Part shown: positions 3,768-59,894 of the stretch, in pieces
Numbering within the stretch: the first letter of the stretch is position 1
Layout of the letters: each line of letters begins with the position of its first letter
IMG/VR virus record: IMGVR_UViG_3300021400_000128
Coordinates: 72,916 to 136,915 of that record
Direction: 5' to 3' (one strand)
Source: a virus
Taxonomy: Duplodnaviria; Caudoviricetes
DNA: 64,000 nt
The notes under the pieces: model-generated
Databases searched by the model: none
Told to the model about the DNA's origin: nothing
The model's input: the letters and a program-made list of their open reading frames with translations, nothing else
Translations under genes and position numbers: made by a program

Positions 3768-4059
3768 TTTTGACCTTCCTTTACAATTTGCTGGCCTCGT
3801 TTTATTGCTTTGACACTCCCCATGCCTAAAGGCAGGGGATTCTTAAGAAGGTTGCTAAGATAGCCTTATTCTTAAAGGGCTTGCCAATAGCCCGCTATCC
3901 AGTCTTTCAAAATTGAAATTCTGTTTACATTTCCGTTACCGCCTTATATCCCCATAGTTGAAGCGAGGGGTTTTACGGCTGTTTTCTGATAAAATCACCG
4001 TACCAGTTTGTTTCGAATTGAAAATCAAAATTCTTCAGCATTTGCTGTCGAAGTGTCAT
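3764..4059 (-). pseudogene. 38-aa ORF interrupted by the mini-element
   Basis: Removing 3810-3988 restores MTLRQQMLKNFDFQFETNWYGDFIAIKRGQQIVKEGQK*. Confidence 0.65.
3810..3988 (-). mobile_element. Non-autonomous IS605-type mini-element with a third omegaRNA-like scaffold
   Basis: Same right-end hairpin; left end CCCCATAGTTGAAGCGAGGGG; TAM-like TTTAT at 3989-3993. Confidence 0.85.
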
Positions 4060-4239: not shown

Positions 4240-4376
4240 AGGTAACCTCCGTGATTCAAAATTTATTATTTAATCAACTTACATTTATTATTATATGCGT
4301 TATTATATATTTGTCAATGTCTTCTTTTATTTTTATTACAATTAATCGTAAAGAAAAAACCGGGATATCCGGTTGT
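4240..4376 (-). promoter_or_regulatory. Terminator + early promoter cassette
   Basis: AACCGGGATATCCGGTT hairpin with T-tract on minus, then TTGACA (4312-4317)-16-TATAAT. Confidence 0.85.
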
Positions 4377-4380
4377 AATA

Positions 4381-5280
4381 TTATTTTGAATTATCGTATG
4401 TTACTTTAAATCCCGCTGATTCGATTTGTTGAATTGTCGCCGCATGTGATGGATTATTTTTCCATGTCTTTGGTACAGAGAAATGATCTATATCATTGAG
4501 TGTTACATCACCGTGGAATTGTAATTCAGCGTATTGGTATCCATAGCTGCCGGTGTCATATAATTGTTTTGCTTGTTCGTAAAAATAACGAGCTTCACCT
4601 TCAGTAATTCTATCCGGTTCACCCCATTCTGCACTATATTTTGAAATGATACGGGGATTTGACACCCAACTCGGATATAAAACATCATACAACGAATCTC
4701 CAAGGGTCATTGTTGTACGGCTCACCATTGTATCTTTTTTGAAGACAATATCCAAATTACCGTAAGATGCAGCAGAAACAGAATCAGGACTTCCAAGATA
4801 GCCGTATTTTTCATAATCAGCGGGAGCTAAGACACCATCATATTCAAATGCTGTTCGCGAAAAATAATCTCTTGCGTCGAGATCTTCTGCACCCATTGAT
4901 GTACCCGTCTCGAACTGATTCATAATTCTTCCACTGGATAAAATCTTTGCAACTGTACTTTCTTTTATTCTTCGGCGAAATTCAAGTTTCTCAACTGCTT
5001 TGCGTAAATATTCTTCTCCACGATCGATTAGTTTCTGTGCGTCTACGGGCGAGTTATCCCGTAAGTTCTTTGACTTCTCAATATGCCCTGTGAAATTCTT
5101 TAATAATTTTGGTAATTCTGTATTTACAGGATTATTCTTTTCTCGTAAATATTGCTCATATGCTTCTTTTGCTTGCTGCCGTACATAATCTTCATCGAAT
5201 TCAAAAATTTCATTTTCGTATTCTTTTCTTTTCTTTTCGATAAATCTTTTAACAAATCTGAATTTTGCACTTCCACCCAT
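4381..5280 (-). CDS. MGG-leader protein with DUF3626-like putative ADP-ribosyltransferase domain
   Basis: MGGSAKFRF start; NQFETGTS.G, YGYL, YG, TMTLGDS and YAELQFHG motifs. Confidence 0.6.
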   Translation of the reverse strand: MGGSAKFRFVKRFIEKKRKEYENEIFEFDEDYVRQQAKEAYEQYLREKNNPVNTELPKLLKNFTGHIEKSKNLRDNSPVDAQKLIDRGEEYLRKAVEKLEFRRRIKESTVAKILSSGRIMNQFETGTSMGAEDLDARDYFSRTAFEYDGVLAPADYEKYGYLGSPDSVSAASYGNLDIVFKKDTMVSRTTMTLGDSLYDVLYPSWVSNPRIISKYSAEWGEPDRITEGEARYFYEQAKQLYDTGSYGYQYAELQFHGDVTLNDIDHFSVPKTWKNNPSHAATIQQIESAGFKVTYDNSK

Positions 5281-6084: not shown

Positions 6085-6759
6085 TCACATATGAATATTA
6101 ACACAAGTCAAATAATAATCACCTGGAATGCTGTCAAGTATTTTGTTGTATTCATCATTCCATTGTGTATTAAATTTTCCTTCTTGTTCGATCCATTCTC
6201 CATCTGGTTTCAATACCGCCCACGGAGTCCATGTAAAAAGAAATTCTGCAAACGTCCGCTTTTCTGGTGACCAATTAGGATTCGAGGAGCAATCAAGAAC
6301 ATGCTGCACCCATCTGCGCCAAATCAAAGGGAACTGTTTTCTCAGCTTTTCTTCTGGTGCCGCAAGGTCAATTCGTGGAACATCTTTGATCTGAATATAA
6401 TTGTTGGGCTGTTCGTACAGGCCACAACCTTCTTTAATTATGTAATAGTCCCATTTCGCATCGGGATTATTTGCAGAAATAGCATTACCTTCTTTATCGA
6501 TATCTTCATACAATTCCATTTTTAAACTGTAATAGCGAATCGTGCCGATATCATCTTTATCCAGTGCTTCAAAAAGCTCTCTTTTTCCTTGTTCCGATAA
6601 TAAATCTGAATATTTTCTTAATCGTTTTTTTACCTCTGGATATTCAGCGCAAATATATGGATCCACTTCTAAATCCTGATCGAATGGTTCCATGCACTCT
6701 GCTATCATCTTCAGGGTTGGTTTTTTCTCTGTGATAACCGCAACTTCTAAATGTCCCAT
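6085..6759 (-). CDS. Phage hypothetical protein
   Basis: NPDAKWDYY and AVLKPDGEW motifs common in phage proteins. Confidence 0.7.
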   Translation of the reverse strand: MGHLEVAVITEKKPTLKMIAECMEPFDQDLEVDPYICAEYPEVKKRLRKYSDLLSEQGKRELFEALDKDDIGTIRYYSLKMELYEDIDKEGNAISANNPDAKWDYYIIKEGCGLYEQPNNYIQIKDVPRIDLAAPEEKLRKQFPLIWRRWVQHVLDCSSNPNWSPEKRTFAEFLFTWTPWAVLKPDGEWIEQEGKFNTQWNDEYNKILDSIPGDYYLTCVNIHM

Positions 6760-12010: not shown

Positions 12011-12934
12011 TTATGCTTCAGCGTTCACCATGGCATATACCTTATCCAGGAGCGGGTGACCGTTCGTTACCTTATCGAAAAGGTTTCCGAAGTAGGAATC
12101 TGTCATTCTCAATGGTTCTGTGTGGCTTACCATGTCACTGACCGCATTCACAACACCGAAAGCCGTACCCCTGAAGTTGGCAATATCATCAGCGTTATAA
12201 CAGCGTTTCAGCTGTTCCCGCTGATAAAAAGCGTTTCTCAGTTCTCGTTCACTTGCATCCTTACTGACCGGGAAAAGTTCTTCCCAGAATTTCTGGATCT
12301 TTTCGTTTGAGATTTTGATTCTGGCAAGGCGGACATAATCCTCATTTACTTCCGTGAAGTAATCCTCAGACAATTTCAGCGTTCTGTCAGCTTCTTTAAT
12401 CTTTCCCTCAATATCACCGGTGTGACGAATCGAGAAGGAGCGATACGCATCCTTCACAGCAAGATTCAGTGTATTCTGACAAATTACGCGGATCGGGGTC
12501 ACGCAAACCTTTACCGCACCTTTTCCATCAAAGGAATTTTTGAAAATCAGGTAATGATGATACCAATCTCCCATCACCTGTTTCGGTTCCAGACTTGCCT
12601 GCAGCCAGATGGTTTTCCAGTCATTGCAGCTTCCGGCATTTTCGTATGTACATCCACGACCGATCAACCCGTCAGTGAATGCAAACGCATCCGTATTTTG
12701 CACGATCTTGTACCGATCAGTGACCATTCCAAGAACTTTTCCATCATTGGATTTCCGATTAACCCGGTATCCTTTGATATGGTTCCCTTGAACATCAAAC
12801 ACAGGTTCCTGAAGCACCTCGAAATCAAGGTGAGCAGCTTTCAGCGCATCAGCAGAAGTCAGTGCGTCATTCACAATCGTCGCATTGGTGCGGGCGAAAA
12901 TACTCGGGCGGGTGGAATAAAAACTTGTAAACAT
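12011..12934 (-). CDS. DUF932 (LGT_TIGR03299) protein
   Basis: LGMVTDRYKIVQN.DAF.F.D; NSFDG; TPIRVICQNTL; IRHTG. Confidence 0.85.
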   Translation of the reverse strand: MFTSFYSTRPSIFARTNATIVNDALTSADALKAAHLDFEVLQEPVFDVQGNHIKGYRVNRKSNDGKVLGMVTDRYKIVQNTDAFAFTDGLIGRGCTYENAGSCNDWKTIWLQASLEPKQVMGDWYHHYLIFKNSFDGKGAVKVCVTPIRVICQNTLNLAVKDAYRSFSIRHTGDIEGKIKEADRTLKLSEDYFTEVNEDYVRLARIKISNEKIQKFWEELFPVSKDASERELRNAFYQREQLKRCYNADDIANFRGTAFGVVNAVSDMVSHTEPLRMTDSYFGNLFDKVTNGHPLLDKVYAMVNAEA

Positions 12935-13149
12935 GTCATTCTCCTTATATTTTTACTTCAGATTATTTGATTACGATATCTTGTACATGGATGGGAATAA
13001 TATTATTCCTTTTAAAAAATCTCAACGCTTGCATAATCGGCGACATCAATATCGCCGTCAGGATATTTCACCACAACACAAGGATCGCCGTTTTCGATAA
13101 TGTATTCCAGGATTGAAACTTTTTCACCGTCAAGATAAGTGCTCATTTG

Positions 13150-13485
13150 TTGCCTCCGTTATTTTTAGTCTTGCTTTTTTCAACTTACATTACTTATTAT
13201 ACGCGCTTTTATTTAATTGTCAATGTATTTAATCATTTTTATTACATTTCAACTTATTTTTTAACCGGGAATTTCACCCGGTTATTATTACATATGACGA
13301 ATTATGGTATCAATCACCAGATACAGAGCATACAAGGCAACCAGTGAAGCAATCGCACCGATAAATTCTGAAATAATCGTAAAAAACATTGTGACCTCCG
13401 TTGTTTTTTATTCAATCAACTTACATTATTTATTATATTCAGCATTATATATTTGTCAATGTTTATGTTTATTTTCATTACATTT
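13150..13485 (-). promoter_or_regulatory. Two tandem early promoter cassettes with an intervening terminator
   Basis: TTGACA at 13218-13223 and 13454-13459, each 16 nt from TATAAT; hairpin at 13263-13283. Confidence 0.75.
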
Positions 13486-13638
13486 AATAATTGTTTCTAT
13501 TTTACATTTAACAAAAAATGCGCCTTGAAAAATTAACATCAGGACGCATTTTGAAGGACATTTTGTGTTTGATATATTGTTTATTGGTTTTGATATTTCA
13601 ATAGCTTTATTTTTAATCCTGTGCGCTCCAGTTGGGTC

Positions 13639-14250
13639 TTAACCGATTATGTGGATACGTCCACACTTTGGGCACTTGCTGTAAACAGGCTGCTTAATCG
13701 GTGCCGATACATTCTCAGGATCGTTGGTCATCGGTTTGTTCATTTGTTGTGAAGTCTGCACAGTTCTTGCTTCATGTTCCTGGGCGGTTTCAGCTGGTGC
13801 ATCGTCATAGACTTCCGTCAGATATCCGGTATTGGTTGGAGCTGTTGTCTGCGGTTTGAAGGATGGCGCGAATCCGAACATTGCCATATCGAAGTTCATG
13901 CTTTCCAGTTCCCGTTTTTCTACTGCAAGTTTTTCGGCATCCCATGTAGCAAATTCTGCTGTCCGGTTATCAGCGATCCGGTATGCTCTGATCTGTTCAT
14001 CTGTCAGGTCATCCGCACGAACACAGGGAACGGTCTTCATATGGAGCTTTATCGCTGCCTTCAGTCGTGTATGTCCAGCAACGATCTCATTATTCGCGTC
14101 AATGACAATCGGCTGTTTGAATCCGAATTCTTTTATACTGTTTGCTACATAATTCACCGCAGCGTCATTTCTGCGTGGATTTTTGATATATCCGAACAAT
14201 TCATCTACCGGGATTTCTTCTATTTCCATCATTTCAGCCTCCGGAGCCAT
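13639..14250 (-). CDS. ParB-N/Srx domain protein
   Basis: NPRRND..V..VANSIKEFGFKQPIVID...IVAGHTRL...AYRIADN. Confidence 0.9.
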   Translation of the reverse strand: MAPEAEMMEIEEIPVDELFGYIKNPRRNDAAVNYVANSIKEFGFKQPIVIDANNEIVAGHTRLKAAIKLHMKTVPCVRADDLTDEQIRAYRIADNRTAEFATWDAEKLAVEKRELESMNFDMAMFGFAPSFKPQTTAPTNTGYLTEVYDDAPAETAQEHEARTVQTSQQMNKPMTNDPENVSAPIKQPVYSKCPKCGRIHIIG

Positions 14251-15326
14251 TGATCATATACTTGAGAGGATATCTGTGCCATCATGACAGGCGGAACGCT
14301 CATTCCGCAAATGTATTTTGGAGATTGGTTTAAGAAGTTATAATCTTCTGGAAATGTCTGCATGTGGATAATATCCGTATCACTGATATTTTTACCATCA
14401 TACATTCTCGCCATACTTCCTGAGGCTGCAAGTGTCGGAGCAACATCGTTATCCGCAATTACACCATATTGAAAGCTCGTTTCTTTTTGGTTATTGTTTT
14501 TCATAATAGAAGATATATCCTTATCGCCAGGTTTTCTAACCATCAGGCGCATTTTTGATATTGCGTTTTCATTAGCCCATTCTTTTCCCGATTCGCTCCG
14601 TATTTCTTTAAACAGGATCGGCGGTTCATTGAAGGATAATTTTAATTTCGGAAGGTCAATATCATTTCTATGAGCAATGAAGAACACTCTTTCACGTCTC
14701 TGCGGTACTCCCATTTTCGCGGCATTCAGTTTAAATAACTGCACTGTATATCCCGCTTCATGATAAGCTTTGATGATTTCATTTACGTATCCTTTGGCGT
14801 TTCCTGCAAGTAATCCTGTGACGTTCTCCGCAATACTGACCTTTGGCTTCAGCTGGTCGATCAGTTTGATAAACCAGAAGAATAGATCGTCTAACCGCTG
14901 CATTTTCTGACCTTCCCGGAATTGCTTTTCTACATTCCACCCTTCTTCACGTTTTCCCGCCTGACTGAAGACGCTGCAGGGCGGAGAACCGTCCAGAATG
15001 TCCAAATCATATAATTCAGCGGGCTTTTCTTTATCCAGAAAATCACGGATATCCATCAAAAACGGGTATTTTGGATGATGATTCACCTGATATACTTTCA
15101 TTACACTGGAATCGATCTCACAATTACCGAGTAATTCATATCCGGCTAATTTGTATCCCATAGAGCTCCCCCCCCCGCAAGAGAAACATGAAAAGACAGT
15201 ACAGCCGTTCTTTTTCACATTTGCAAGATCTGTAAGGTTCCATTTCCACGGAAATTTATGTTCAGTCATTGTACCGGAATCCGCAGTAAGGGCATTGCCG
15301 TTCAAATTGTTCGTCTGCATAGTCAT
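14229..15326 (-). CDS. DNA cytosine-C5 methyltransferase
   Basis: FSCGGGSSMG, GSPPC, ENV, PQRRERVF, GMSVPP. Confidence 0.9.
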   Translation of the reverse strand: MTMQTNNLNGNALTADSGTMTEHKFPWKWNLTDLANVKKNGCTVFSCFSCGGGSSMGYKLAGYELLGNCEIDSSVMKVYQVNHHPKYPFLMDIRDFLDKEKPAELYDLDILDGSPPCSVFSQAGKREEGWNVEKQFREGQKMQRLDDLFFWFIKLIDQLKPKVSIAENVTGLLAGNAKGYVNEIIKAYHEAGYTVQLFKLNAAKMGVPQRRERVFFIAHRNDIDLPKLKLSFNEPPILFKEIRSESGKEWANENAISKMRLMVRKPGDKDISSIMKNNNQKETSFQYGVIADNDVAPTLAASGSMARMYDGKNISDTDIIHMQTFPEDYNFLNQSPKYICGMSVPPVMMAQISSQVYDQWLRRLK

Positions 15327-15861
15327 CTAAGTCAATCTCCTCATTGTCGTTTATTTTACTGATTGGTTCTGTTGGTCTTGTATGGATCGGTATTTCTTCA
15401 TTGCTATCATATTCTGAATCATCGGAATATGTCTGATCGATTGGCAATGGTTCCGGGTCCTGAGTGATAATACCGAACCCAAAACTGTTCATATCAAAAC
15501 CAACGTTTTGAAGCTCTTTCATTTCGATACTGAGCTTTTCAAAGTCCCAACCGGATTGTTCCTTCACCTTGTTATCCGCTAATCTGTATGCTTTGATCTG
15601 CTCATCGGTAAGGTCATCTGCCATCACACATGGCACTGTAGTCAGTCCGAGTTTCTTTGCGGCAAGAAGACGGGTATGTCCTGCGACAATAACATAATCC
15701 TTATCTATTACGATAGGCTGCTTAAAACCAAATTCCTTGATTGACGCAGCAACATATTTCACCGCCGGAAGGTTGTTCCGTGGATTGTTTTCATACATTT
15801 TCAGTTTCTCAACCGGTATCTCTATTATTTCCATCAGCTTTTTCTCTTTCCATAAATCCAT
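15262..15861 (-). CDS. ParB-N/Srx domain protein
   Basis: NNPRNN...FGFKQPIVIDK..VIVAGHTR; C-terminal CPYCG. Confidence 0.9.
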   Translation of the reverse strand: MDLWKEKKLMEIIEIPVEKLKMYENNPRNNLPAVKYVAASIKEFGFKQPIVIDKDYVIVAGHTRLLAAKKLGLTTVPCVMADDLTDEQIKAYRLADNKVKEQSGWDFEKLSIEMKELQNVGFDMNSFGFGIITQDPEPLPIDQTYSDDSEYDSNEEIPIHTRPTEPISKINDNEEIDLDDYADEQFERQCPYCGFRYND

Positions 15862-24316: not shown

Positions 24317-24386
24317 AGGGATGCCCTCCTTTTTCGATTAGGACACCCCTTCTTAGGGCGCATGTCACTCGATTTAATTATACAAC

Positions 24387-24502
24387 TTGACACTCCCCAT
24401 GCCTAAAGGCAGGGGATTCTTGCTTCACCCACCACAGCATGATTTTCATCACGTCTTACACGATGTCCACAAGCGTTGATTCCCGTGTGTCCCACGGTAT
24501 TT
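24387..24502 (-). ncRNA. TnpB omegaRNA (reRNA) scaffold overlapping the tnpB 3' end
   Basis: ACCGTGGGACACACGGG hairpin ... GTGAAGCAAGAATCCCC ... GTGTCAA. Confidence 0.8.
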
Positions 24503-25599
24503 TCTTTTAAAATTTCCAATCCTTTATTCAGAATGTTGATCGCTGCATTAGCATCACGATTATGATGAGTTCCACATTTTGGACAGTCCCATTCTCGGAT
24601 CGATAAATCCTTTACTTCAGGATTTTTATATCCGCATTGGTTACATGTCTGACTGCTTTCATAGAAGCGTGGTATTTTAACTAATATTCCTTTCCTGTCA
24701 CTCATCTTGTATTGCAGCATTCTGAAAAATTCACTCCAACTTACATCTGCGATTGATCGTGCTAATTTATGATTTTTCATCATTCCTTTGATGTTCAGAT
24801 CTTCAACACATACAACTTGATTCTCGTTTGCAAGTGTTGTTGTCACTTTATGAAGGAAATCTGTTCTGATATTAGTCACTTTTTCGTAAGCAATCGCAAC
24901 TTTTATTCTCTGCTTTTCTCTGTTGTTGCTCCCCTTTACTTTTTTTGACATTCTTCTTTGTGTTCTTGCAAGTTTTTTTGCGTATTTTTTATATGTTTTC
25001 GGATTCGGGATACTATTTTCATTACTGTCAACAAGAAAATCTTTGATCCCAACATCTATTCCAATAATGCCTCCGTTATTTGTCAATTCAGGTTCATCTG
25101 TCTCAACACAAAGCGAAACATAATACTTTCCACTCATCGATTTACTTATTGTTGCATTCAGGATTCGTCCATCGAAGTGTTTCAGTCCTTTATATCTGAC
25201 ATAACCGATTTTAGGTAGCTTGATTGTATTTGCGACAAGCCTAATTCCGTTACTCTGATTTCTTGTTCTGAAAGATTGTTTTCTTTTCTTTGAATGGAAC
25301 TTTGGGAATCCGGCATTCCTTTTGAAGAAATTTTGATAAGCCTTATCTAAATCCTTCAAAGTCTCTTGATATGCCATGCTGTCGGTCAGGTTTAGCCATT
25401 CTTGAGTTCCGTCTTTTTTTAGCTCCGTCAACAACCGCATCGTTTCATACATTGACACTGATTTCTTTTCTTCTTTGTATGACTTAATCCGAAGATCAAG
25501 AAAATGATTATATACATAGCGAACATTTCCAAATGTCTGCTCAATTTGGCTCTTTTGTTCTCTCGTTGGATATAATCTCGCCTTGTATCCTTTGTTCAT
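24403..25599 (-). CDS. tnpB: RNA-guided endonuclease TnpB
   Basis: YKARLYP HTH; RuvC GIDVG / VEDL / RDANAA; CNQC...CPKC. Confidence 0.95.
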   Translation of the reverse strand: MNKGYKARLYPTREQKSQIEQTFGNVRYVYNHFLDLRIKSYKEEKKSVSMYETMRLLTELKKDGTQEWLNLTDSMAYQETLKDLDKAYQNFFKRNAGFPKFHSKKRKQSFRTRNQSNGIRLVANTIKLPKIGYVRYKGLKHFDGRILNATISKSMSGKYYVSLCVETDEPELTNNGGIIGIDVGIKDFLVDSNENSIPNPKTYKKYAKKLARTQRRMSKKVKGSNNREKQRIKVAIAYEKVTNIRTDFLHKVTTTLANENQVVCVEDLNIKGMMKNHKLARSIADVSWSEFFRMLQYKMSDRKGILVKIPRFYESSQTCNQCGYKNPEVKDLSIREWDCPKCGTHHNRDANAAINILNKGLEILKENTVGHTGINACGHRVRRDENHAVVGEARIPCL

Positions 25600-25724: not shown

Positions 25725-25852
25725 GCCAACCTCCGTTCAAAATTCATTCAACTTACATTTATTATTATATTTATTATTATATATTTGTCAATGCGTTTAC
25801 TTATTTTTATTACATTGATTCACAAAAAGAAAACCGGATCAACTCCGGCTTT
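25725..25852 (-). promoter_or_regulatory. Terminator + early promoter cassette
   Basis: CCGGA..TCCGG hairpin; TTGACA at 25786-25791; TAAATGTAAGTTGA leader. Confidence 0.8.
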
Positions 25853-26349
25853 CGACAATTCAAAAAGTTTTCTTCGTTTATATTAATTAGTTTCATAATA
25901 TTTGCACGCTTTCAGATAATATTTAGAATTATCAGATTCATCATAATGTTTTAATCGTAAACGATCCAATTCTTTTTGTGCTGTTTCTTTGTTATCATAA
26001 ATGCCAACAATTTCATAACATAATTCTGTATTCAAAAAAGCCCAGAAAGAATAATACTTATGGACGATCGCATAACATTCTTTACTATTCATCATTTCAT
26101 GTCCCTCTCAAACCAGCAATTATAATAATTTATTACTTTGAATAGATGGGAGTCATTAACCGTTTTTCCGATATTTTCAACATCGTAATAATGTTTATGA
26201 TTCATGCAGATTCTATTGACACTGTGAAGATCAACTTTAGTTTTTGAACTTAACTTCACTTCAAAATATAAAGCATCCGCATCAGAATCATAATAAGAAC
26301 AATAATATGATACTCTGTCTGCGAATGAGTTAATCACATATCTCATGAT

Positions 26350-30234: not shown

Positions 30235-30372
30235 GAGTTGCCTCCGTTATTCAAATTGTTTGTTTAATCAACTTACATTATTTATTATATACGCTTTTAT
30301 ATATTTGTCAATGTATTTAATCATTTTTATTACATTGAATTATAAAGAAAAAACCGGGATATCCGGTTCTTC
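30235..30372 (-). promoter_or_regulatory. Terminator + early promoter cassette
   Basis: AACCGGGATATCCGGTT; TTGACA at 30306-30311; GAATAACGGAGG RBS. Confidence 0.85.
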
Positions 30373-30633
30373 TTATTTTTTATGGACAATTATTTAAATC
30401 AAATCTATTCTGTATTACATCACCGCTGTAAAATCAGCGATCCGCTTTCCTTCTGGTGAAAACAAAGCTCCTTTCGTCTCATCCAGGAAGTAACCTTGCC
30501 GTGTCAGTTTTTCTACTGCGTTTCCCTGAAAGTTTTTCGGCAGCAGCGCATCGATCCTTTTTTCATCACCGCTGCAGCTTGCCATCATGCCATTCATAAC
30601 GTAATATCGACCTCTCATTTTACACTCCTCTCG

Positions 30634-33116: not shown

Positions 33117-33554
33117 TCAGGCAGTCACTTTGCGAAAGCTGACCGTCGGATTCCCGATCTTCTTGGCGATCCCGATTTCAGGGAATTGCTTTTCCAGCAC
33201 TTTAAGCGTTTTCCCGTCCCATGTCGTCTTACCGGACACCCAGCACGCCATCAGGGATTCACCCTTGACCGTCGCACCGCATTCAAGAACATCGTTCTTG
33301 ATTTCTGCTTCGAGCAGTCCGATCTGTTCGATCAGGTCGGCGTTCTTAGCTTCAAACTGTGCCATCAGTTCGTTATAGACGTTCCGAAGGTTGTTCAGGA
33401 CATCCAGCTTTTCTTCTGTTGTTACCTTTGTCGTTACGATTTGACATTCCTCATAATGGGGATTCTCTCTCGACAATGGCAATCCATTGAGCATAAAAGA
33501 GCTATCTCCGTGTGTCCCACGGTTCGTTTTTGTTACGATTTCGATGTTTTCCAT
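33117..33554 (-). CDS. Coiled-coil phage protein (Gam/Gp157-like) carrying an in-frame 99-bp omegaRNA insert
   Basis: C-terminal GKTTWDGK.L.....PEI...K.GNPTVSFR; roughly residues 9-38 derive from the omegaRNA. Confidence 0.6.
   Translation of the reverse strand: MENIEIVTKTNRGTHGDSSFMLNGLPLSRENPHYEECQIVTTKVTTEEKLDVLNNLRNVYNELMAQFEAKNADLIEQIGLLEAEIKNDVLECGATVKGESLMACWVSGKTTWDGKTLKVLEKQFPEIGIAKKIGNPTVSFRKVTA
33441..33524 (-). ncRNA. Immobilised TnpB omegaRNA copy inside a CDS
   Basis: 33458-33524 matches 52172-52238 at 66/67 nt; right-end hairpin shortened; no left end. Confidence 0.8.
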
Positions 33555-33714
33555 TGTTGCCTCCGTTATTCAAAATTCATCATTCAACTTACATTTATTA
33601 TTATACGAGTTTTTATATATTTGTCAATGTTTTTAATTATTTTTATTACATCTTTTTATTTATCGAAGTTATGACATTCCAGTTGAAAAATTAACCGGAT
33701 TATCTCCGGTTAAT
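33555..33714 (-). promoter_or_regulatory. Terminator + early promoter cassette
   Basis: TTAACCGGA..TCCGGTTAA hairpin; TTGACA at 33622-33627. Confidence 0.8.
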
Positions 33715-38612: not shown

Positions 38613-38750
38613 GATTGCCTCCGTGATTCAAACTCAATTTCAACTTACATTTATTATTATATGCGTTATTTAATAATTGTCAATGTGTATCATTATTTTT
38701 ATTACATTTAATAATAATTAAAAAAGCCCGGTAAAAAAGTCGGGCTTTTC
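38613..38750 (-). promoter_or_regulatory. Terminator + early promoter cassette
   Basis: AAAAGCCCG..CGGGCTTTT hairpin; TTGACA at 38678-38683. Confidence 0.8.
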
Positions 38751-38769
38751 ACGTAAGGAGACTGATCTA

Positions 38770-40483: not shown

Positions 40484-40807
40484 TCAATGCAATGTTTCAT
40501 TAGCCCATTTTTTTACAAACTGAGAAATCGGTAATCCTTCTGCATCTGCTTTATCTGCTATCTTTTTATGCGTTTCCCGATCCACCCAGATTGTTGTCTT
40601 GTCGGATTCAGGTTCTTTGTCAACCCGTACATCTTCGCCGAGCAGTGCTTTTGCTTGTTTGTCATCTATCGGATCTATATAATCACCAATCAGCAAAAAC
40701 CATTCTCGTTTCCGTGTGCGCTTTCTGTAAAGGATTCCAACACCAACATCAGCAACCTTTTCACTGGTTTCCGTGTCGTACAATTTCGTTCCGATGCGTT
40801 TTTTCAT
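40484..40807 (-). CDS. YDT-motif protein with C-terminal RHH
   Basis: MKKRIGTKLYDTETS...TTIWVDRETH..I...A...G.PISQFV. Confidence 0.7.
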   Translation of the reverse strand: MKKRIGTKLYDTETSEKVADVGVGILYRKRTRKREWFLLIGDYIDPIDDKQAKALLGEDVRVDKEPESDKTTIWVDRETHKKIADKADAEGLPISQFVKKWANETLH

Positions 40808-41111
40808 AAGCCTCTTTCTTTGCGGTAATTTTGCCATGCTCTTTCAGCCAGCAAATGTAATTTAACGTTATTATCAGTGCGAAATGGTCAATCTGGATTA
40901 TTGCAATCAGGCGGTACCACACTTGCTTGCATCGGATAGTTGAGCCTTGTACATTTATCAGTATTCGAGACTGATAATATCGTTGGAACGGACATTACAG
41001 CTTCGATTGCATCTTCTTCTGTATAATTTTCCATTCCCATGAAGTAATTGTATTTTTCAGTGCTCTTTCTAATAGCTTCGATCGCATCCTGACGACTAAT
41101 CAAATCATCGT

Positions 41112-41453
41112 TCATGCGGGAACCTCCTTATAGTATGCTGATGGTGGCCAGAAGCTCATGATAACGACATGAGCTTTGGTTTTGGCATCGTCGGCATCGT
41201 CCGCCCAGACATATACATCAGTGGAACGGCTTCCGCCGTTGTCGCGGAGGCAGTCAACATAACCGCCCCAGCGACCAACAAAGCCATTGTCGATTTTGCA
41301 GTCAAAGTCACGGTCACGAACCGTGAACCGTGCCACGTTGCCGTCAATGGTGCAGGGATAGACGGAGCCGACATTCCATCCGCCATCCCAGCCGTAGGAC
41401 ATTGAATAGTGACCACTCAAGGTCACGCAGAAAAGTTTTTTGTTGTCAATCAT
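41112..41453 (-). CDS. Hypothetical protein (higher GC than flanks)
   Basis: ORF with AGGA RBS. Confidence 0.55.
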   Translation of the reverse strand: MIDNKKLFCVTLSGHYSMSYGWDGGWNVGSVYPCTIDGNVARFTVRDRDFDCKIDNGFVGRWGGYVDCLRDNGGSRSTDVYVWADDADDAKTKAHVVIMSFWPPSAYYKEVPA

Positions 41454-41694
41454 ATTTCCTTCTATGCTTCACCGTGATACGGCTTACCATCCTTAGAAAC
41501 GCCACACCAAACGGTCTTGCCCATGTTGGTTGCACGGAAGCTGAACATCTTGACGGCATCGGAATACCGTTCCGCCTCGAAAGTCATCAGGACTTCAAGA
41601 CCGCGGGCATTGTCACGAACGTTGACGGTATAACCGCCGTTGACAATATCTTTTTCTGCTACGAGATAGTAAGTTTTCATCATAGTTATCCTTT

Positions 41695-42042
41695 CTATTT
41701 CCAAGATTTCGGCTTTACTGCATCAGCCATTGCTTTCAAAACAGATGACGTATCATCAGTTTTTTCAATGCGATCATACACATCATTCAAAGGTGTCCGC
41801 TTGTAGGCAATCAGAGTAATGTCATTGTCTGATTTTTTCACGATCTGAATCAAAGATTCAATTGCGTTGATATAACGCACTTTTATAGTATCAATCAAAT
41901 TGAAATCTTTATCAAAGATCTCATACCAAACTTGTTGAATGGTTCGCGTTGTGAAAATCTTTTGATAGCAATAAACGGCACCTTCCGGTAATTCATCTGC
42001 GGTTTTAATGCTCCGCATATTTTCATAGTCTTTTTTGTTCAT
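41695..42042 (-). CDS. Hypothetical protein
   Basis: ORF with AAAGGA RBS. Confidence 0.6.
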   Translation of the reverse strand: MNKKDYENMRSIKTADELPEGAVYCYQKIFTTRTIQQVWYEIFDKDFNLIDTIKVRYINAIESLIQIVKKSDNDITLIAYKRTPLNDVYDRIEKTDDTSSVLKAMADAVKPKSWK

Positions 42043-42101
42043 GTCATTATTCCTTTCTGAAAGTGATATTCGTCGTTGTTGTTTACATTATAATATAAGT
42101 T

Positions 42102-42234
42102 GTCAAGGCACATGACTTGTAGTTCCCAGAATTTCTGGAATGGTATTTTCCCCGCGTAAGCGGGGGCTCCCGAGCGGAGCATTTTCCCCGCCCACGCGGG
42201 GGTGACTCGAATCAAGTGCCTTGTGGATTGAAAT
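42102..42234 (+). ncRNA. Putative CRISPR-repeat-mimic RNA (I-C, II-C and two I-E-like units)
   Basis: ATTTTCCCCGC....GCGGGGG twice; TTGTAGTTCCC...ATGGTAT; GTC-AAGGCAC...GTGCCTT-GTGGATTGAAAT; TATAAT at 42089-42094. Confidence 0.65.
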
Positions 42235-42510
42235 GCAATCAAAACCTGATATGAGCCTGATTTTCAGGCTCGTATCATTTAATCACAAACTCCGAAAAAC
42301 CCAGATTGTGGTACAAGCCCATCTTCCGACTGCGTTTCTATAATAGAAAAAGGTGTGTACAACCTAAACATTTTTTCATTGTCGAAAATATCATTTAACG
42401 CTTCGGCCTTCCAATAACCATCCAAGAAAAATCTTGCTTCGCTCTTAGTAATTTCAATAGGTTTTGAATTTTCACTTTTCAGCGTTTTTATGTATTTCAT
42501 CTCACCCTCC

Positions 42511-42927
42511 TTATGCTTTTTCAGTGATACTAACCATCACACCGTTGACAACATCCTCGATTGTGTAACGGGGATTCGAATTATTCCACTTGTAACCTGT
42601 TTCGACATCAGTGAGCCATGTACCGAGTGCTGAAACACCGTAAGTGATGCGGTGGATTTCCGCCGGACCGGTTTGCTTGAAAAGCATCTTCTGTCCTGGT
42701 TCCTCTCCTACCCATTCGTGAGGGACAATTAAACCGATACCTTTGACTGTCTGGCCGAGGTCATTGCGATCATTATCAAAAAGCCAAGGCAGAACTTCGA
42801 TATACTGCTCTGCGGTTACTCCGTATTGCTTCCAGTTCTCAAATGCGCTGTAAGCACGGTGCTGTTTGTTACCTGTCTTTATTGCGTTGGTTACACTCTG
42901 AAAAGTTTTTTCGCTATAACTGTTCAT
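42511..42927 (-). CDS. Hypothetical protein
   Basis: ORF in operon with AAAGGAGA RBS. Confidence 0.6.
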   Translation of the reverse strand: MNSYSEKTFQSVTNAIKTGNKQHRAYSAFENWKQYGVTAEQYIEVLPWLFDNDRNDLGQTVKGIGLIVPHEWVGEEPGQKMLFKQTGPAEIHRITYGVSALGTWLTDVETGYKWNNSNPRYTIEDVVNGVMVSITEKA

Positions 42928-43424
42928 CTCATTCTCCTTTCGCGAATCTTTTATCTAAAGGTTCAATATCGCATTTTGAAAATGCTATGTACTCATCAAG
43001 ATCATCATTGTACAAAGCATACGTATCAATATGTACTGCACCGCCATATTCTCTAATATCTGCTTCAGCGTAATTATCAACAAATGTCTGCACTGCATCT
43101 GACAGACTTGATGTTTCGTACTGAATATCTGACAGATACAGTTCATTGTTTTCAAATTCTTCTTCTACCCAAATTCTTTTGAATCCATCGGTTGCAATCG
43201 ATTCAGTCGGCTCAGTGTAATTTCTAACGATAATTTTGTACATCTCATTATCCTTTCACAATTGTCCAATCTTTCGGGTCAAATTCACTCACCGCCCACA
43301 TATCATGCTTTCCTGCAAGATATTTTTCTCCACGCCATTCGATGACCTCAAGTGTATCATCTCCGCATTTTACAACATCACCTTGTTTGATTTCAGACCA
43401 ATCTTTCATCTCATCCTCCTTTTT

Positions 43425-43994
43425 TTATTCACCAAGCAAAGCATTGATTTCTGCAAGTCGCGCAAGAAGTTTTTCTTTTTCTTCTTCCAGTGCTTTGCGA
43501 TCAATCTGCTCTCCGACAATTTCCATTGTTACTTCGTCAGGAAGTTCGCATTCATCAAGAGCGGTTTTCGGAAGGCTCATCAGCTTCACAACACAACCTT
43601 CAGGAACAATTGTGTGCCAGTTCTTCACAGAACCGCCGCTTTTTGGAGCACCTTCCAGAAACATAACATCTTCACCGATACGAGCACCGCTGTCACGTCC
43701 TGATGCTGATGCAATCGTGCGTCCAAGTATTGTTACCGGACCATGCCAGATTGAAATTTCTTTGTCGAATTTCAGAATTACTTCTACTGTTTCCGAAACA
43801 GGATTGTCATCCTGTCCGTAGATGTTGCGCATTGCAGAACGCACATCTTCAACAGCATTTTCATTCACTGTCCAGCATTTCTGTGTTGGATTCCAACGCC
43901 CGCCGAGAAGTTTAATCCTCGCCACGAAGTCTGCATTATAAGGTGTGTACACTTGTGCCTTACCATTTTCTATTTTGATTTCAAAGTTTGCCAT
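43425..43994 (-). CDS. Phage hypothetical protein
   Basis: TPYNADFV..IK.LGGRW....KCW; ASASGRDSGA. Confidence 0.7.
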   Translation of the reverse strand: MANFEIKIENGKAQVYTPYNADFVARIKLLGGRWNPTQKCWTVNENAVEDVRSAMRNIYGQDDNPVSETVEVILKFDKEISIWHGPVTILGRTIASASGRDSGARIGEDVMFLEGAPKSGGSVKNWHTIVPEGCVVKLMSLPKTALDECELPDEVTMEIVGEQIDRKALEEEKEKLLARLAEINALLGE

Positions 43995-44451: not shown

Positions 44452-46494
44452 TCATTCCATGTGAAGTATATTTATTATTTTATTGATTGGCATTTTAAAT
44501 AGCCAATCTCGTATATCAAACTCATCATCTTTTCGTTTCAAGAACAAATATGCACGGAGCGGATGGTTCTTTACTGCTTCAGCGAAATCCTTTTGAGTGG
44601 CATACTCATTTTCGCAAAATGTTTTCCACTCATTTTCTGCATAATCGCAAAATGTTTGTATTTTATTCAGCACTGCATCGACTTTTTCTTTTTGTTCCGG
44701 GGCATATGCAAGGAAATCATCCAATTGATCGCTGCGAATCAGTTTGAGGATACGCTTTTCGGTCACAGCTCCGTTCATTCTGATATGAGCAGCAAGCAGA
44801 TATTCCGGAGACTTGACTTTAATCCGGTTTCCGAATAAGTCATTGACCACAAAGCCCTCCTCATCTTTACTCATCATCTGCGCAGCAGTTACCACGTCAT
44901 GCAAATTGCTGATATGATACACTTTTGGATATTGGATCCTTGCTTCCGGTACAAATTCAGGGGTATCAAAATATTCGGTTCCTGTTGTGGTTTCCTTTCG
45001 TGAAAGATAATAAATTCCGTCCTGATACGGAATGACGACCTGTGTCTCCGGTGATGTCAGTTCAAACATGTACGTCAGGTTCTTATCGAGCGTGCTGCCG
45101 AATGTCTGAATATCCGTTCCTAATGCTCTGACAAAAATATCGCCGAAGAATAATTCATCATCCTCACCGACCGGGGCTTCAAAGGCATCGATCGTCCCGT
45201 TTGTAGACAGATGCCATTGTCCGTTGTCATACCAGACTTTACACAACGATCCATCGACTTTTTCAGTCACTCTTGCGGTTTTCCAGTCAATATCAGCAGC
45301 ATACTCTTCACCATAATTGAAAAACTTATCAAAAGGACGGCAGACATAAATATATTTACCGTTATCATTTTTCAGGATACAGCCGCGAGCTTCCCGTGAT
45401 GCCACATAGCTCATATCTGTTGCGAATTGGTTGTACTTTAAAAGAATATAATGATATTTTTCATTAATTGTTTCACGAATTGTCAATGAGAATGGTGGAT
45501 TCTTTAGCCGTTCACGCCAATCAGCAAATGTATTCATCAGATCAATTAAGTGCATTGATTTGTATTTCGTCATTGATATCTGTCCTGTTTCATCTGCTTT
45601 TCTGAGCATCACGAGTTTATCATATAGTTCCGCTCCGTAATACTCAATAAAATCCACCTTTTTAAAAAAATCTCTGTACACAGCATCGTGATAATGGATT
45701 AACCTTGCAATATTCTTTGTGCGCTCTGATATGTCATAGCCATGAACCTTATCGCATAAATACAGATATGCGCTCACGTTTTCATGCTGATTAAAATGGG
45801 CTCCTTTTTCGTCTTCTGACCGTGTATAGTTTTTTCCAAGGTCATGATACCAGGCAGCTTCTTTCACATCGTCAGGTGCATTCATTGCATCCGCAGCTTT
45901 GAATACTAAATCCGTATGATGACCGACATTTTCAACGTGCCATTTTCCGGTCTGATCGATACCGTATAATTTTGGATACAGCTCATCAAAAATCTGCGTG
46001 TCAGTATGATTGTATGGATTATAAAAGACGATTTTGTTAAAACCTTCATGAAGTTCCGGCATAAAGAACGCTGACATTTGACGATATATCACATCCTGTG
46101 GTGTTTGCCTTTCACGGCTTCGCTGATTCTCAATCGCCATATTTGGCGGAGCCAGTATCGCATAACATTCCTTGTTAATTACAACGCCACGAACACGGCA
46201 CTGATTCAGTACGTTCCTTCTTGCTTTCCGGGATAGGTTTGTAGCATCCAGGATCACATCTTTTCCTTCTGTCAGAAATCCTTTCACTCTGCGATACGCT
46301 TCCTGAAATACTTTTTCCGGGTCTCTCTGGATACTTTCGTCACCAAACATTTCTTCACGGATTGAATCGGAGGATACGACACGAACATCGGATTTAGCAT
46401 GGACATCAAGATATTGATTGAGTAATGTATGTTTTACAAAGGTGGATTTTCCGCTGCCGGATATTCCAACCATAATAATCAATTTTGGCATCAC
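44452..46494 (-). CDS. Polynucleotide kinase - HD phosphoesterase - T4 Rnl1-like RNA ligase fusion
   Basis: GISGSGKST, DATNL; H...HT...HDLGK..H; KFFN, EKVDGS, EGFVV, KVKSPEY. Confidence 0.88.
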   Translation of the reverse strand: MMPKLIIMVGISGSGKSTFVKHTLLNQYLDVHAKSDVRVVSSDSIREEMFGDESIQRDPEKVFQEAYRRVKGFLTEGKDVILDATNLSRKARRNVLNQCRVRGVVINKECYAILAPPNMAIENQRSRERQTPQDVIYRQMSAFFMPELHEGFNKIVFYNPYNHTDTQIFDELYPKLYGIDQTGKWHVENVGHHTDLVFKAADAMNAPDDVKEAAWYHDLGKNYTRSEDEKGAHFNQHENVSAYLYLCDKVHGYDISERTKNIARLIHYHDAVYRDFFKKVDFIEYYGAELYDKLVMLRKADETGQISMTKYKSMHLIDLMNTFADWRERLKNPPFSLTIRETINEKYHYILLKYNQFATDMSYVASREARGCILKNDNGKYIYVCRPFDKFFNYGEEYAADIDWKTARVTEKVDGSLCKVWYDNGQWHLSTNGTIDAFEAPVGEDDELFFGDIFVRALGTDIQTFGSTLDKNLTYMFELTSPETQVVIPYQDGIYYLSRKETTTGTEYFDTPEFVPEARIQYPKVYHISNLHDVVTAAQMMSKDEEGFVVNDLFGNRIKVKSPEYLLAAHIRMNGAVTEKRILKLIRSDQLDDFLAYAPEQKEKVDAVLNKIQTFCDYAENEWKTFCENEYATQKDFAEAVKNHPLRAYLFLKRKDDEFDIRDWLFKMPINKIINILHME

Positions 46495-52138: not shown

Positions 52139-52146
52139 TTTCACGC

Positions 52147-52240
52147 TTGACACTCCCCATGCCTAAAGGCAGGGGATTCTCTCTCGACAATGGCAATCCA
52201 TTGAGCATAAAAGAGCTATCCCCGTGTGTCCCACGGTTTT
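52147..52240 (-). ncRNA. Right-end omegaRNA of the adjacent TnpB
   Basis: ACCGTGGGACACACGGGGATAGCTC...GAGAGAATCCCC...GTGTCAA. Confidence 0.85.
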
Positions 52241-52248
52241 TATCAATG

Positions 52249-59752: not shown

Positions 59753-59878
59753 AACACCCTCCGTTATTCAATTCAACTTACATTATTATTATACATGTTA
59801 TTTATTATTTGTCAATGCAATTATTTATTTTTATTGCGTTTGATTAAAAAAATAAAACCGCCGAAATTGGCGGATTTA
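59753..59878 (-). promoter_or_regulatory. Terminator + early promoter cassette
   Basis: CCGCC..GGCGG hairpin; TTGACA at 59810-59815; GAATAACGGAGG RBS. Confidence 0.8.
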
Positions 59879-59894
59879 CTGATATTGGAGTGAG

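Follow-up and report, generated by a model that had tools for sequence, protein, structure and literature searches.

A short intergenic stretch in the genome of a gut or rumen phage is, judging from its predicted structure, its conservation and its likeness to real CRISPR repeats, probably a gene for a polyvalent RNA anti-CRISPR, i.e. a non-coding, Racr-like RNA of ~180 nt. The window analysed here (64,000 nucleotides) corresponds to bases 72916-136915 of a phage contig of 136,915 bp with a GC content of 40%. The ends of this contig overlap and it is therefore circular or terminally redundant. It codes for terminase, capsid protein, anaerobic ribonucleotide reductase, a methylase and copies of TnpB, and its terminase and NrdD resemble those of Firmicute and gut phages. 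The RNA element is located between the minus-strand ORFs 41695-42042 (115 aa) and 42279-42500 (73 aa) of the window. It thus resides on a mobile element and, as a first-pass annotation made from the sequence alone had proposed, is intergenic and reads antisense to the flanking genes.

Architecture of the RNA element

The element begins with the -10 box TATAAT at 42089-42094, from which a transcription start is predicted 7 nt downstream, at ~42102. Here, GTC and a 7-nt stem arm (42102-42111) form the 5' half of a split type I-C repeat mimic, while its 3' half, the complementary arm followed by a 12-nt I-C tail, is found at 42216-42234. The resulting 7-bp stem (8 bp with a closing C-G pair) closes ~105 nt, and this very large loop houses one II-C-like unit and two I-E-like hairpins. 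The II-C-like unit, first listed at 42117-42146, spans 42116-42149 and contains an internal 5-bp hairpin (42126-42138). I-E mimic 1 (42145-42166) carries the loop GTAA and its 3' handle is replaced; in the handle position lies a 5-bp hairpin (42166-42180), followed by I-E mimic 2 (42181-42209) with the loop CCAC and an altered handle. A terminator hairpin of 14 bp (42247-42277) with a short A/U tail reaching to 42283 completes the predicted small RNA, which as the sum of these parts occupies 42102-42283 of the plus strand. The -10 box, both halves of the I-C mimic with their oversized loop, the II-C-like unit, the two I-E-like hairpins starting at 42145 and 42181, the small hairpin between them and the terminator-like hairpin had all been described in the first-pass annotation, and each of them was confirmed in place.

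The two I-E units start 36 nt apart, with units of the two other subtypes lying within the same 135 nt. Their hairpins are separated by 20 nt as compared to 45 nt in real arrays, which leaves, after an 8-nt handle and a 5-nt repeat start, a pseudo-spacer of 7 nt. Hence, the earlier statement that the units lack proper spacers was borne out.

This arrangement is not expected by chance. According to dinucleotide shuffles of the window, 0.00 occurrences of the I-E core pattern, 0.01 of the I-C 12-mer tail and 0.00 of the II-C pattern would be expected, whereas 2, 1 and 1 were found, respectively, all of them on the same strand of a 135-nt stretch. The rest of the 137-kb genome contains no repeat-like motifs in the form seen in the element, and the remaining GGATTGAAA sites of the genome lie inside coding DNA. 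An Rfam scan of 41000-43500 at a permissive E-value returned noise, with nothing near a gathering score. In 50,697 phage records no similar DNA was found except for a 24-nt match in MT835722.1, a faecal contig. This match lies in a real I-E array, which comprises at least 25 repeats at a period of 61 nt. Of note, the record that contains this array (at 12694-15717) was deposited as 'Bacteriophage sp.' and represents either bacterial DNA binned as viral or an element that carries an array.

The units resemble repeats of real CRISPR arrays

As standard for comparison we used fetched real CRISPR arrays, which were typed by their cas genes. The comparison yielded matches to such arrays for all three subtypes, and the repeat consensuses on which the first-pass annotation had relied turned out to be correct.

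A scan of one genome per species detected the I-E repeat core in at least 120 stretches, mostly arrays with a 61-nt period, and mostly in Oscillospiraceae, Ruminococcus, Faecalibacterium and Lachnospiraceae. One of the matching arrays adjoins genes for Cas1 and a Cas2(CT1978)-DnaQ fusion and shares their orientation. Real I-E repeats have the stem in common and vary in their 4-nt loop. The loop GTAA of unit 1 is present in five arrays (L055, L056, L066, L095 and L109), one of which is labelled Coprococcus eutactus, and the loop CCAC of unit 2 occurs in the array of L087. Therefore, unit 1 is identical to real repeats over 21 of 21 nt and unit 2 over 24 of 24 nt. Unlike in real I-E repeats, the 3' handle of unit 1 is replaced by a hairpin. 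For unit 2, an 8-nt handle had been claimed. A handle is indeed present, but it reads GTGACTC where real arrays mostly have GTGATCC, i.e. positions 5-6 differ from real handles. The exact pattern of unit 2 was absent from the viral contigs.

Among 91 sampled Clostridia genomes, several contained arrays with a ~67-nt period and the 12-nt I-C tail, which almost never occurred in the reverse reading. One array with this tail lies beside cas3-cas5d-csd1-cas7-cas4-cas1-cas2. Real I-C repeats consist of GTC, a G+C-rich stem of 6-7 bp, a loop of 4-5 nt, the second arm and then the tail. In the element, GTC, the stem length and the 12-nt tail are as in real repeats, the tail being identical, whereas ~105 nt take the place of the 4-5-nt loop. 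The sequence of the element's I-C stem had no match among the real arrays examined. Two lone repeats of this kind were observed elsewhere. In Ruminococcus sp. YE71 (L294, ~1500 of the reverse strand), a complete I-C repeat lies 6 nt after a TATAAT box, the promoter-to-GTC geometry being the same as in the element, which makes it a candidate for a classical solitary repeat. Another lone I-C-like repeat is present in L273.

When the ends of the II-C unit were used as pattern in a metagenome scan, dozens of arrays were retrieved whose 36-nt repeats recur with a period of 66 nt. One of these arrays is located beside genes for a 1093-aa Cas9, Cas1 and Cas2 and immediately adjoins cas2, and in many of the 66-nt-period loci a tracrRNA could be located upstream of cas9. 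The anti-repeats and terminators of these tracrRNAs fix the crRNA sense of the II-C repeat, which is the sense present in the element. The claim that the mimics are all in crRNA sense was substantiated, all of them lying on one strand. Compared with real repeats, the II-C unit lacks 2 nt, and it agrees with the best of them at 28 of 36 positions with two 1-nt gaps, but 18 of these positions were required by the search pattern; the evidence for II-C likeness is the existence of such arrays in numbers and not this identity figure. In computed pairings with 15 real anti-repeats, the II-C unit formed duplexes of full length and in full register with energies of -17 to -32 kcal/mol (z = -1.7 to -6.6 versus shuffles). 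This pairing is moderate: cognate repeat-anti-repeat duplexes reached -40 to -53 kcal/mol, and the unit attains about half of these values.

Nine related elements with conserved RNA structure

Eight homologous elements were found, two in metagenomes (L138, L249) and six in viral contigs (L257, L258, L260, L295, L296, L297). Together with the element of the window they constitute the nine members of alignment A2. The homologue contigs have other genes in common with the phage, e.g. those for an endolysin and for proteins of 80 aa and 117 aa. The element is always antisense and next to the start of a minus-strand gene, and this gene varies between contigs. The -10 box TAYAAT is invariant in all nine members, six of which have an extended TGn motif, and its distance to GTC is fixed at 7-8 nt.

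The stems of the I-E units are invariant across the nine members, and seven different loops are present. Members carry one or two I-E units; the hairpin following unit 1 is absent from those with a single unit and has an unrelated sequence in L295. The I-C tail is exact in five members and variant in the other four. In L249 and L260 the outer stem is kept and followed by a compact I-C-like unit with its own hairpin, whereas L296 and L297 have its distal half rewritten on both sides, providing three compensatory pairs. Overall, 95.8% of the cells of the outer I-C stem are paired in A2, and its covariation score was reached by none of 500 shuffles. Three compensatory pairs also support the terminator hairpin within the family. 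By contrast, a helix between the 5' end of the II-C unit and the handle of unit 2, which had been predicted from six sequences, was dropped because it is not kept in the nine. Eight matches to the 5'-arm pattern in viral contigs were in coding DNA and attributed to chance, and L259 was likewise dismissed as a chance match.

The family also bears on the question of whether the element could be a decayed or recombined remnant of CRISPR material acquired from hosts, for instance a collapsed mini-array or an old site of recombination with host arrays, with no function beyond terminating transcription. Phage and prophage mini-arrays with the same I-E repeat do exist (L264, L008, L070, L075 and L029), and the hairpin at 42247-42277 directly adjoins the stop codon of gene 42279-42500 on the minus strand and could be the terminator of that gene. 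We nevertheless regard such a remnant as rather improbable: a single fold nests units of three different subtypes, the I-E loops change on invariant stems, the outer stem underwent compensatory changes, the -10 box is kept at fixed spacing and the nine members differ by gain and loss of modules. Taken as a whole, these features show purifying selection on an RNA rather than decay.

A further locus, although not counted among the nine, deserves mention. On the minus strand of the viral contig IMGVR_UViG_3300021400_001848 (L263; ~6344-6666 of the reverse complement), a TATAAT box is followed by an I-E unit with a variant handle and then by another short repeat-like motif, which is present twice and ends in GTAGAAA. 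By its sequence, this locus may be another compound mimic directed against other CRISPR types.

The element appears to be transcribed from the plus strand

Several features indirectly support the plus strand as the predicted transcribed strand, namely the conserved -10 box and its spacing, the crRNA sense of the units, the G-U cells of the alignment and the T-tract terminators. In A2, 35 cells forming G-U pairs in a plus-strand RNA would be A-C mismatches in a minus-strand RNA, a count that is partly biased as the structure was predicted on the plus strand. One pair of the terminator is G-U, U-G or U-A in the various members, a pattern that is valid only in a plus-strand RNA. L296 and L297 possess two plus-strand hairpins with T tracts in place of the terminator seen in the window. 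A simple promoter scan did not call the element's promoter, and the -35 region is weak, as had been noted at the outset. However, the first-pass annotation gave this weakness too much weight: it matters less because six of the nine family members have the extended TGn -10 motif.

If the minus strand were the relevant one, the element could be a cis-acting structure of the minus-strand operon (a terminator, an insulator or the 5' UTR of gene 41695-42042) or a gene for a small protein (ORF 42039-42242, 67 aa), its likeness to CRISPR repeats being incidental. The minus strand does fold more strongly than the plus strand: for the same 190-nt stretch we obtained z = -7.3 on the plus strand, as compared to -91.4 kcal/mol and z = -9.8 on the minus strand. 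In addition, the end of the ORF overlaps the next gene by ATGA, and beside the element the divergent gene has a conserved start codon and ribosome-binding site. However, the lower folding energy of the minus strand arises because the two I-E units pair with each other. The ORF is broken in L138 and L249 and thus not conserved, and its match to a PHROG is weak (E = 0.006), so that it was rejected as a gene. The G-U pairs and the T-tract terminators are compatible with no strand but the plus strand, and a resemblance that includes exact matches to the repeats of three subtypes cannot be incidental. We therefore consider a cis-acting structure or a small protein gene highly improbable.

A possible decoy for three CRISPR-Cas subtypes

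The idea of a compound decoy, as put forward in the first-pass annotation, fits the resemblance of the units to real repeats, their crRNA sense, the lack of spacers, the presence of an own -10 box and terminator and the modular composition of the family. In the proposed mechanism, transcription would initiate at the G of GTC, ~7 nt downstream of the -10 box, would run antisense to the neighbouring genes and would stop at the hairpin 42247-42277. The RNA is predicted to fold into an outer stem of 8 bp flanked by GTC and the I-C tail, a structure supported by covariation and equivalent to an I-C repeat with a giant loop, and this loop would display the II-C look-alike and the two I-E repeat hairpins. 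By analogy with RacrIC1, RacrIE1/2 and RacrIF1, Cas5c would dock on the outer stem and tail and, again as for Racrs, Cas6e would bind each of the I-E hairpins. The fragments resulting from cleavage by Cas6e would have wrong or missing 5' handles and a 7-nt pseudo-spacer, and could therefore yield dead-end complexes. The II-C unit would pair with the tracrRNA and occupy Cas9 with a useless short 5' segment. As net effect, Cas proteins would be titrated away from real crRNAs. The three targets might be present in one host or in different host strains.

In its most far-reaching form, which we put forward tentatively, one RNA would disarm three CRISPR-Cas subtypes from both classes. The opened loop of the I-C repeat would accommodate a decoy crRNA repeat for Cas9 and one or two decoys for Cas6e, modules would be swapped between related phages and the I-E loops would track the repeat variants of hosts, making up an evolvable 'multi-plug' scaffold. 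The presence of two I-E loop variants in the element and the turnover of loops between phages suggest such tracking of host repeat variants.

Alternatively, the element could be a guide-bearing regulatory mimic of the Cracr or viral scaRNA type. In this case, the 5' segment would represent a truncated Cas9 guide, or a guide would follow the I-C tail or the handle of I-E unit 2, and host Cas proteins would be steered to cas or toxin promoters to silence them. Indeed, the 5' segment is placed like the spacer of a II-C crRNA, and the seven bases TGTCAAG are invariant in all nine members, even in L249 and L260, whose I-C unit has its own hairpin. The complement of the segment holds a -35-like hexamer, and viral scaRNAs target the -35 element of cas9 (10.64898/2026.06.01.729453); short spacers are in use in Cracrs (10.1101/2024.10.29.618823). 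However, in 754 kb of II-C loci, which perhaps do not include that of the true host, the 14-nt 5' segment had no consistent match, and no match to a cas9 promoter, the target expected for a viral scaRNA, was found. The repeat-proximal (seed) part of the segment differs in L258, L296 and L297, where it changes together with its pairing partner, which argues for selection on the stem and not on a target. The pseudo-spacer between the I-E units comprises only 7 nt. Finally, the stretch downstream is the element's own terminator, whose sequence is found only together with the element, and therefore a 'homing guide' derived from it was judged unlikely. On balance, a guide-bearing mimic seems unlikely to us, and we return to the decoy as the preferred reading.

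With regard to the hosts, repeats of the matching families are common among Clostridia of the gut and rumen as well as in gut metagenomes. No I-C or II-C arrays of these kinds were present in ten genomes that have matching I-E arrays, and no array with the II-C 5' motif was found in 401 sampled Clostridia genomes; hence, no single host with all three systems was found in these sets. Arrays of the three subtypes were not co-located in the fetched loci, and none of 1,417 spacer-like intervals extracted from these loci matched the phage over more than 23 nt. The lack of a longer spacer match and of a genome with all three systems speaks against the decoy reading, as do the unmatched stem sequence and the four variant tails of the I-C mimic, the shorter II-C unit with its weaker tracrRNA duplex, the weak -35 and the absence of Acr or Aca matches among the neighbouring proteins.

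If the decoy role holds true, a single RNA of 180 nt would be a compact, protein-free and broad-spectrum inhibitor of CRISPR systems, and repeat mimicry would be combinable in a modular manner across subtypes and classes. It would also follow that Cas5c tolerates a large insertion in the repeat loop, and the element would suggest that compound forms escape the searches for solitary repeats now in use. The family provides a natural series for dissecting the capture of Cas6e, Cas5c and tracrRNA-Cas9, since it offers a choice of I-E unit number (one or two) and of loops (seven variants), handles that are altered, and I-C units that are either split or intact. The element may further offer a template for small multiplex CRISPR off-switches.

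Gene neighbourhood of the element

No cas genes were present among the scanned neighbours of the RNA element. ORFs 41695-42042 and 42279-42500 as well as the other small neighbours had no matches in Pfam, PHROGs and PDB sequences, no neighbouring protein corresponded to a known Acr or Aca, and no relatives of the 115-aa neighbour (41695-42042) were detected in viral contigs. At a distance of 2.2 kb from the element, the minus strand encodes a 680-aa polynucleotide kinase-RNA ligase fusion of the tRNA-repair type (44452-46494). PNK-RNA ligases are usually read as tRNA-repair counter-defence genes, and this gene is likely a counter-defence gene as well. Its vicinity to the element speaks in favour of the decoy reading.

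Five of the homologues (L257, L258, L260, L296 and L297) have an inverted repeat, GTGAC and GTCAC separated by 5-7 nt, just upstream of the element's -10 box, with the ribosome-binding site of the divergent gene on its other side. This inverted repeat, which is degenerate in the window (42064-42079), could be an operator. The 117-aa protein (40484-40837), whose gene is often adjacent, exhibits a weak ribbon-helix-helix-like match (NikA-like, E = 0.02) and might be an Aca-like regulator.

Further repeated features were noticed in the window. A cassette of 90-130 nt is present in eight or nine copies (1496-1624, 4259-4387, 13165-13293, 13404-13495, 25733-25861, 30253-30381, 33569-33697, 38625-38753 and 59757-59885). 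Read on the minus strand, it comprises a consensus -35/-10 promoter and a conserved leader, and these cassettes appear to be repeated early promoters of the phage. Repeated hairpin-bearing ends are found at 299-391, 3809-3843, 24386-24502, 33433-33527 and 52146-52241. The TnpB (IS605 OrfB) genes, of which there are several, include 24403-25599 of the window and L001:13347-14585.

Comparison with known systems

Anti-CRISPR activity has been proven for solitary repeats of the subtypes I-C, I-E, I-F and V-A (Camara-Wilpert et al. 2023, PMC10651486). In the case of RacrIF1, Cas6f binds and cleaves the RNA, and a filament of Cas7f forms on it that is devoid of Cas5f and Cas8f; these are missing because the RNA has no proper 5' handle (PMC10651486). 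Racrs including RacrIC1 and RacrIE1/2 share with the element a location on phages, an intergenic position and an own promoter, which in the element is predicted. Further common traits are repeat mimicry in crRNA sense, the lack of a guide and an altered or missing 5' handle, and I-C and I-E are among the validated subtypes. However, the published Racrs are single units of one subtype, whereas three subtypes are united in the element, which in addition has two different I-E variants and an I-C repeat split around other units. SRUFinder, which requires high coverage, discards candidates with a second full or partial repeat within 100 bp (PMC10651486). In the element, further repeat units do lie within this distance. 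It is therefore no strict operational member of the Racrs or viral solitary repeat units, although it could work like one, and going by the published filter rules SRUFinder would probably have missed such a compound design.

Viral scaRNAs and sgRNAs (10.64898/2026.06.01.729453) and rAcrIIA1 (10.64898/2026.06.03.729762) are likewise phage RNAs that mimic the crRNA repeat toward Cas9 and have a short 5' segment, the engagement of Cas9 being predicted in case of the element. The published viral sgRNAs belong to II-A and II-C and stand alone, while the II-C mimic of the element is joined to mimics of type I repeats. Neither an anti-repeat nor a nexus segment is present in the element, the I-E units following directly after the II-C unit; without a tracrRNA part it is not an sgRNA.

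Cracr arrays (10.1101/2024.10.29.618823) also combine several repeat-derived units in one viral transcript. However, their spacers pair with cas or creT promoters and their units belong to one subtype, as opposed to the 7-nt pseudo-spacer and the mixed subtypes of the element. With 7 nt, the element stays below the spacer with at least 9 PAM-proximal bp that defines Cracrs and mini-arrays. The viral mini-arrays (PMC11656645; L264, L008, L070, L029) resemble the element in their I-E repeat family, promoter and terminator, and some have flanking outer stems, but they contain spacers of 31-33 nt between the repeats, of which the element has none. We observed promoter-driven I-E mini-arrays in L008, L070, L075, L029 (a Ruminococcus flavefaciens MAG), L005 and L264. 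They are composed of a variant-handle repeat, a 31-33-nt spacer and a second repeat, either truncated or full. Several have a complementary outer stem around them and a terminator at the end, and they look like mini-arrays or Cracr-like RNAs.

In the literature searched, no RNA combining mimics of several CRISPR subtypes and no split repeat was found, and a search with the sequence string of the element returned primers only. Taken together, the element is a more elaborate design than the single-repeat RNA anti-CRISPRs in this literature, and it probably serves, like these, as a decoy.
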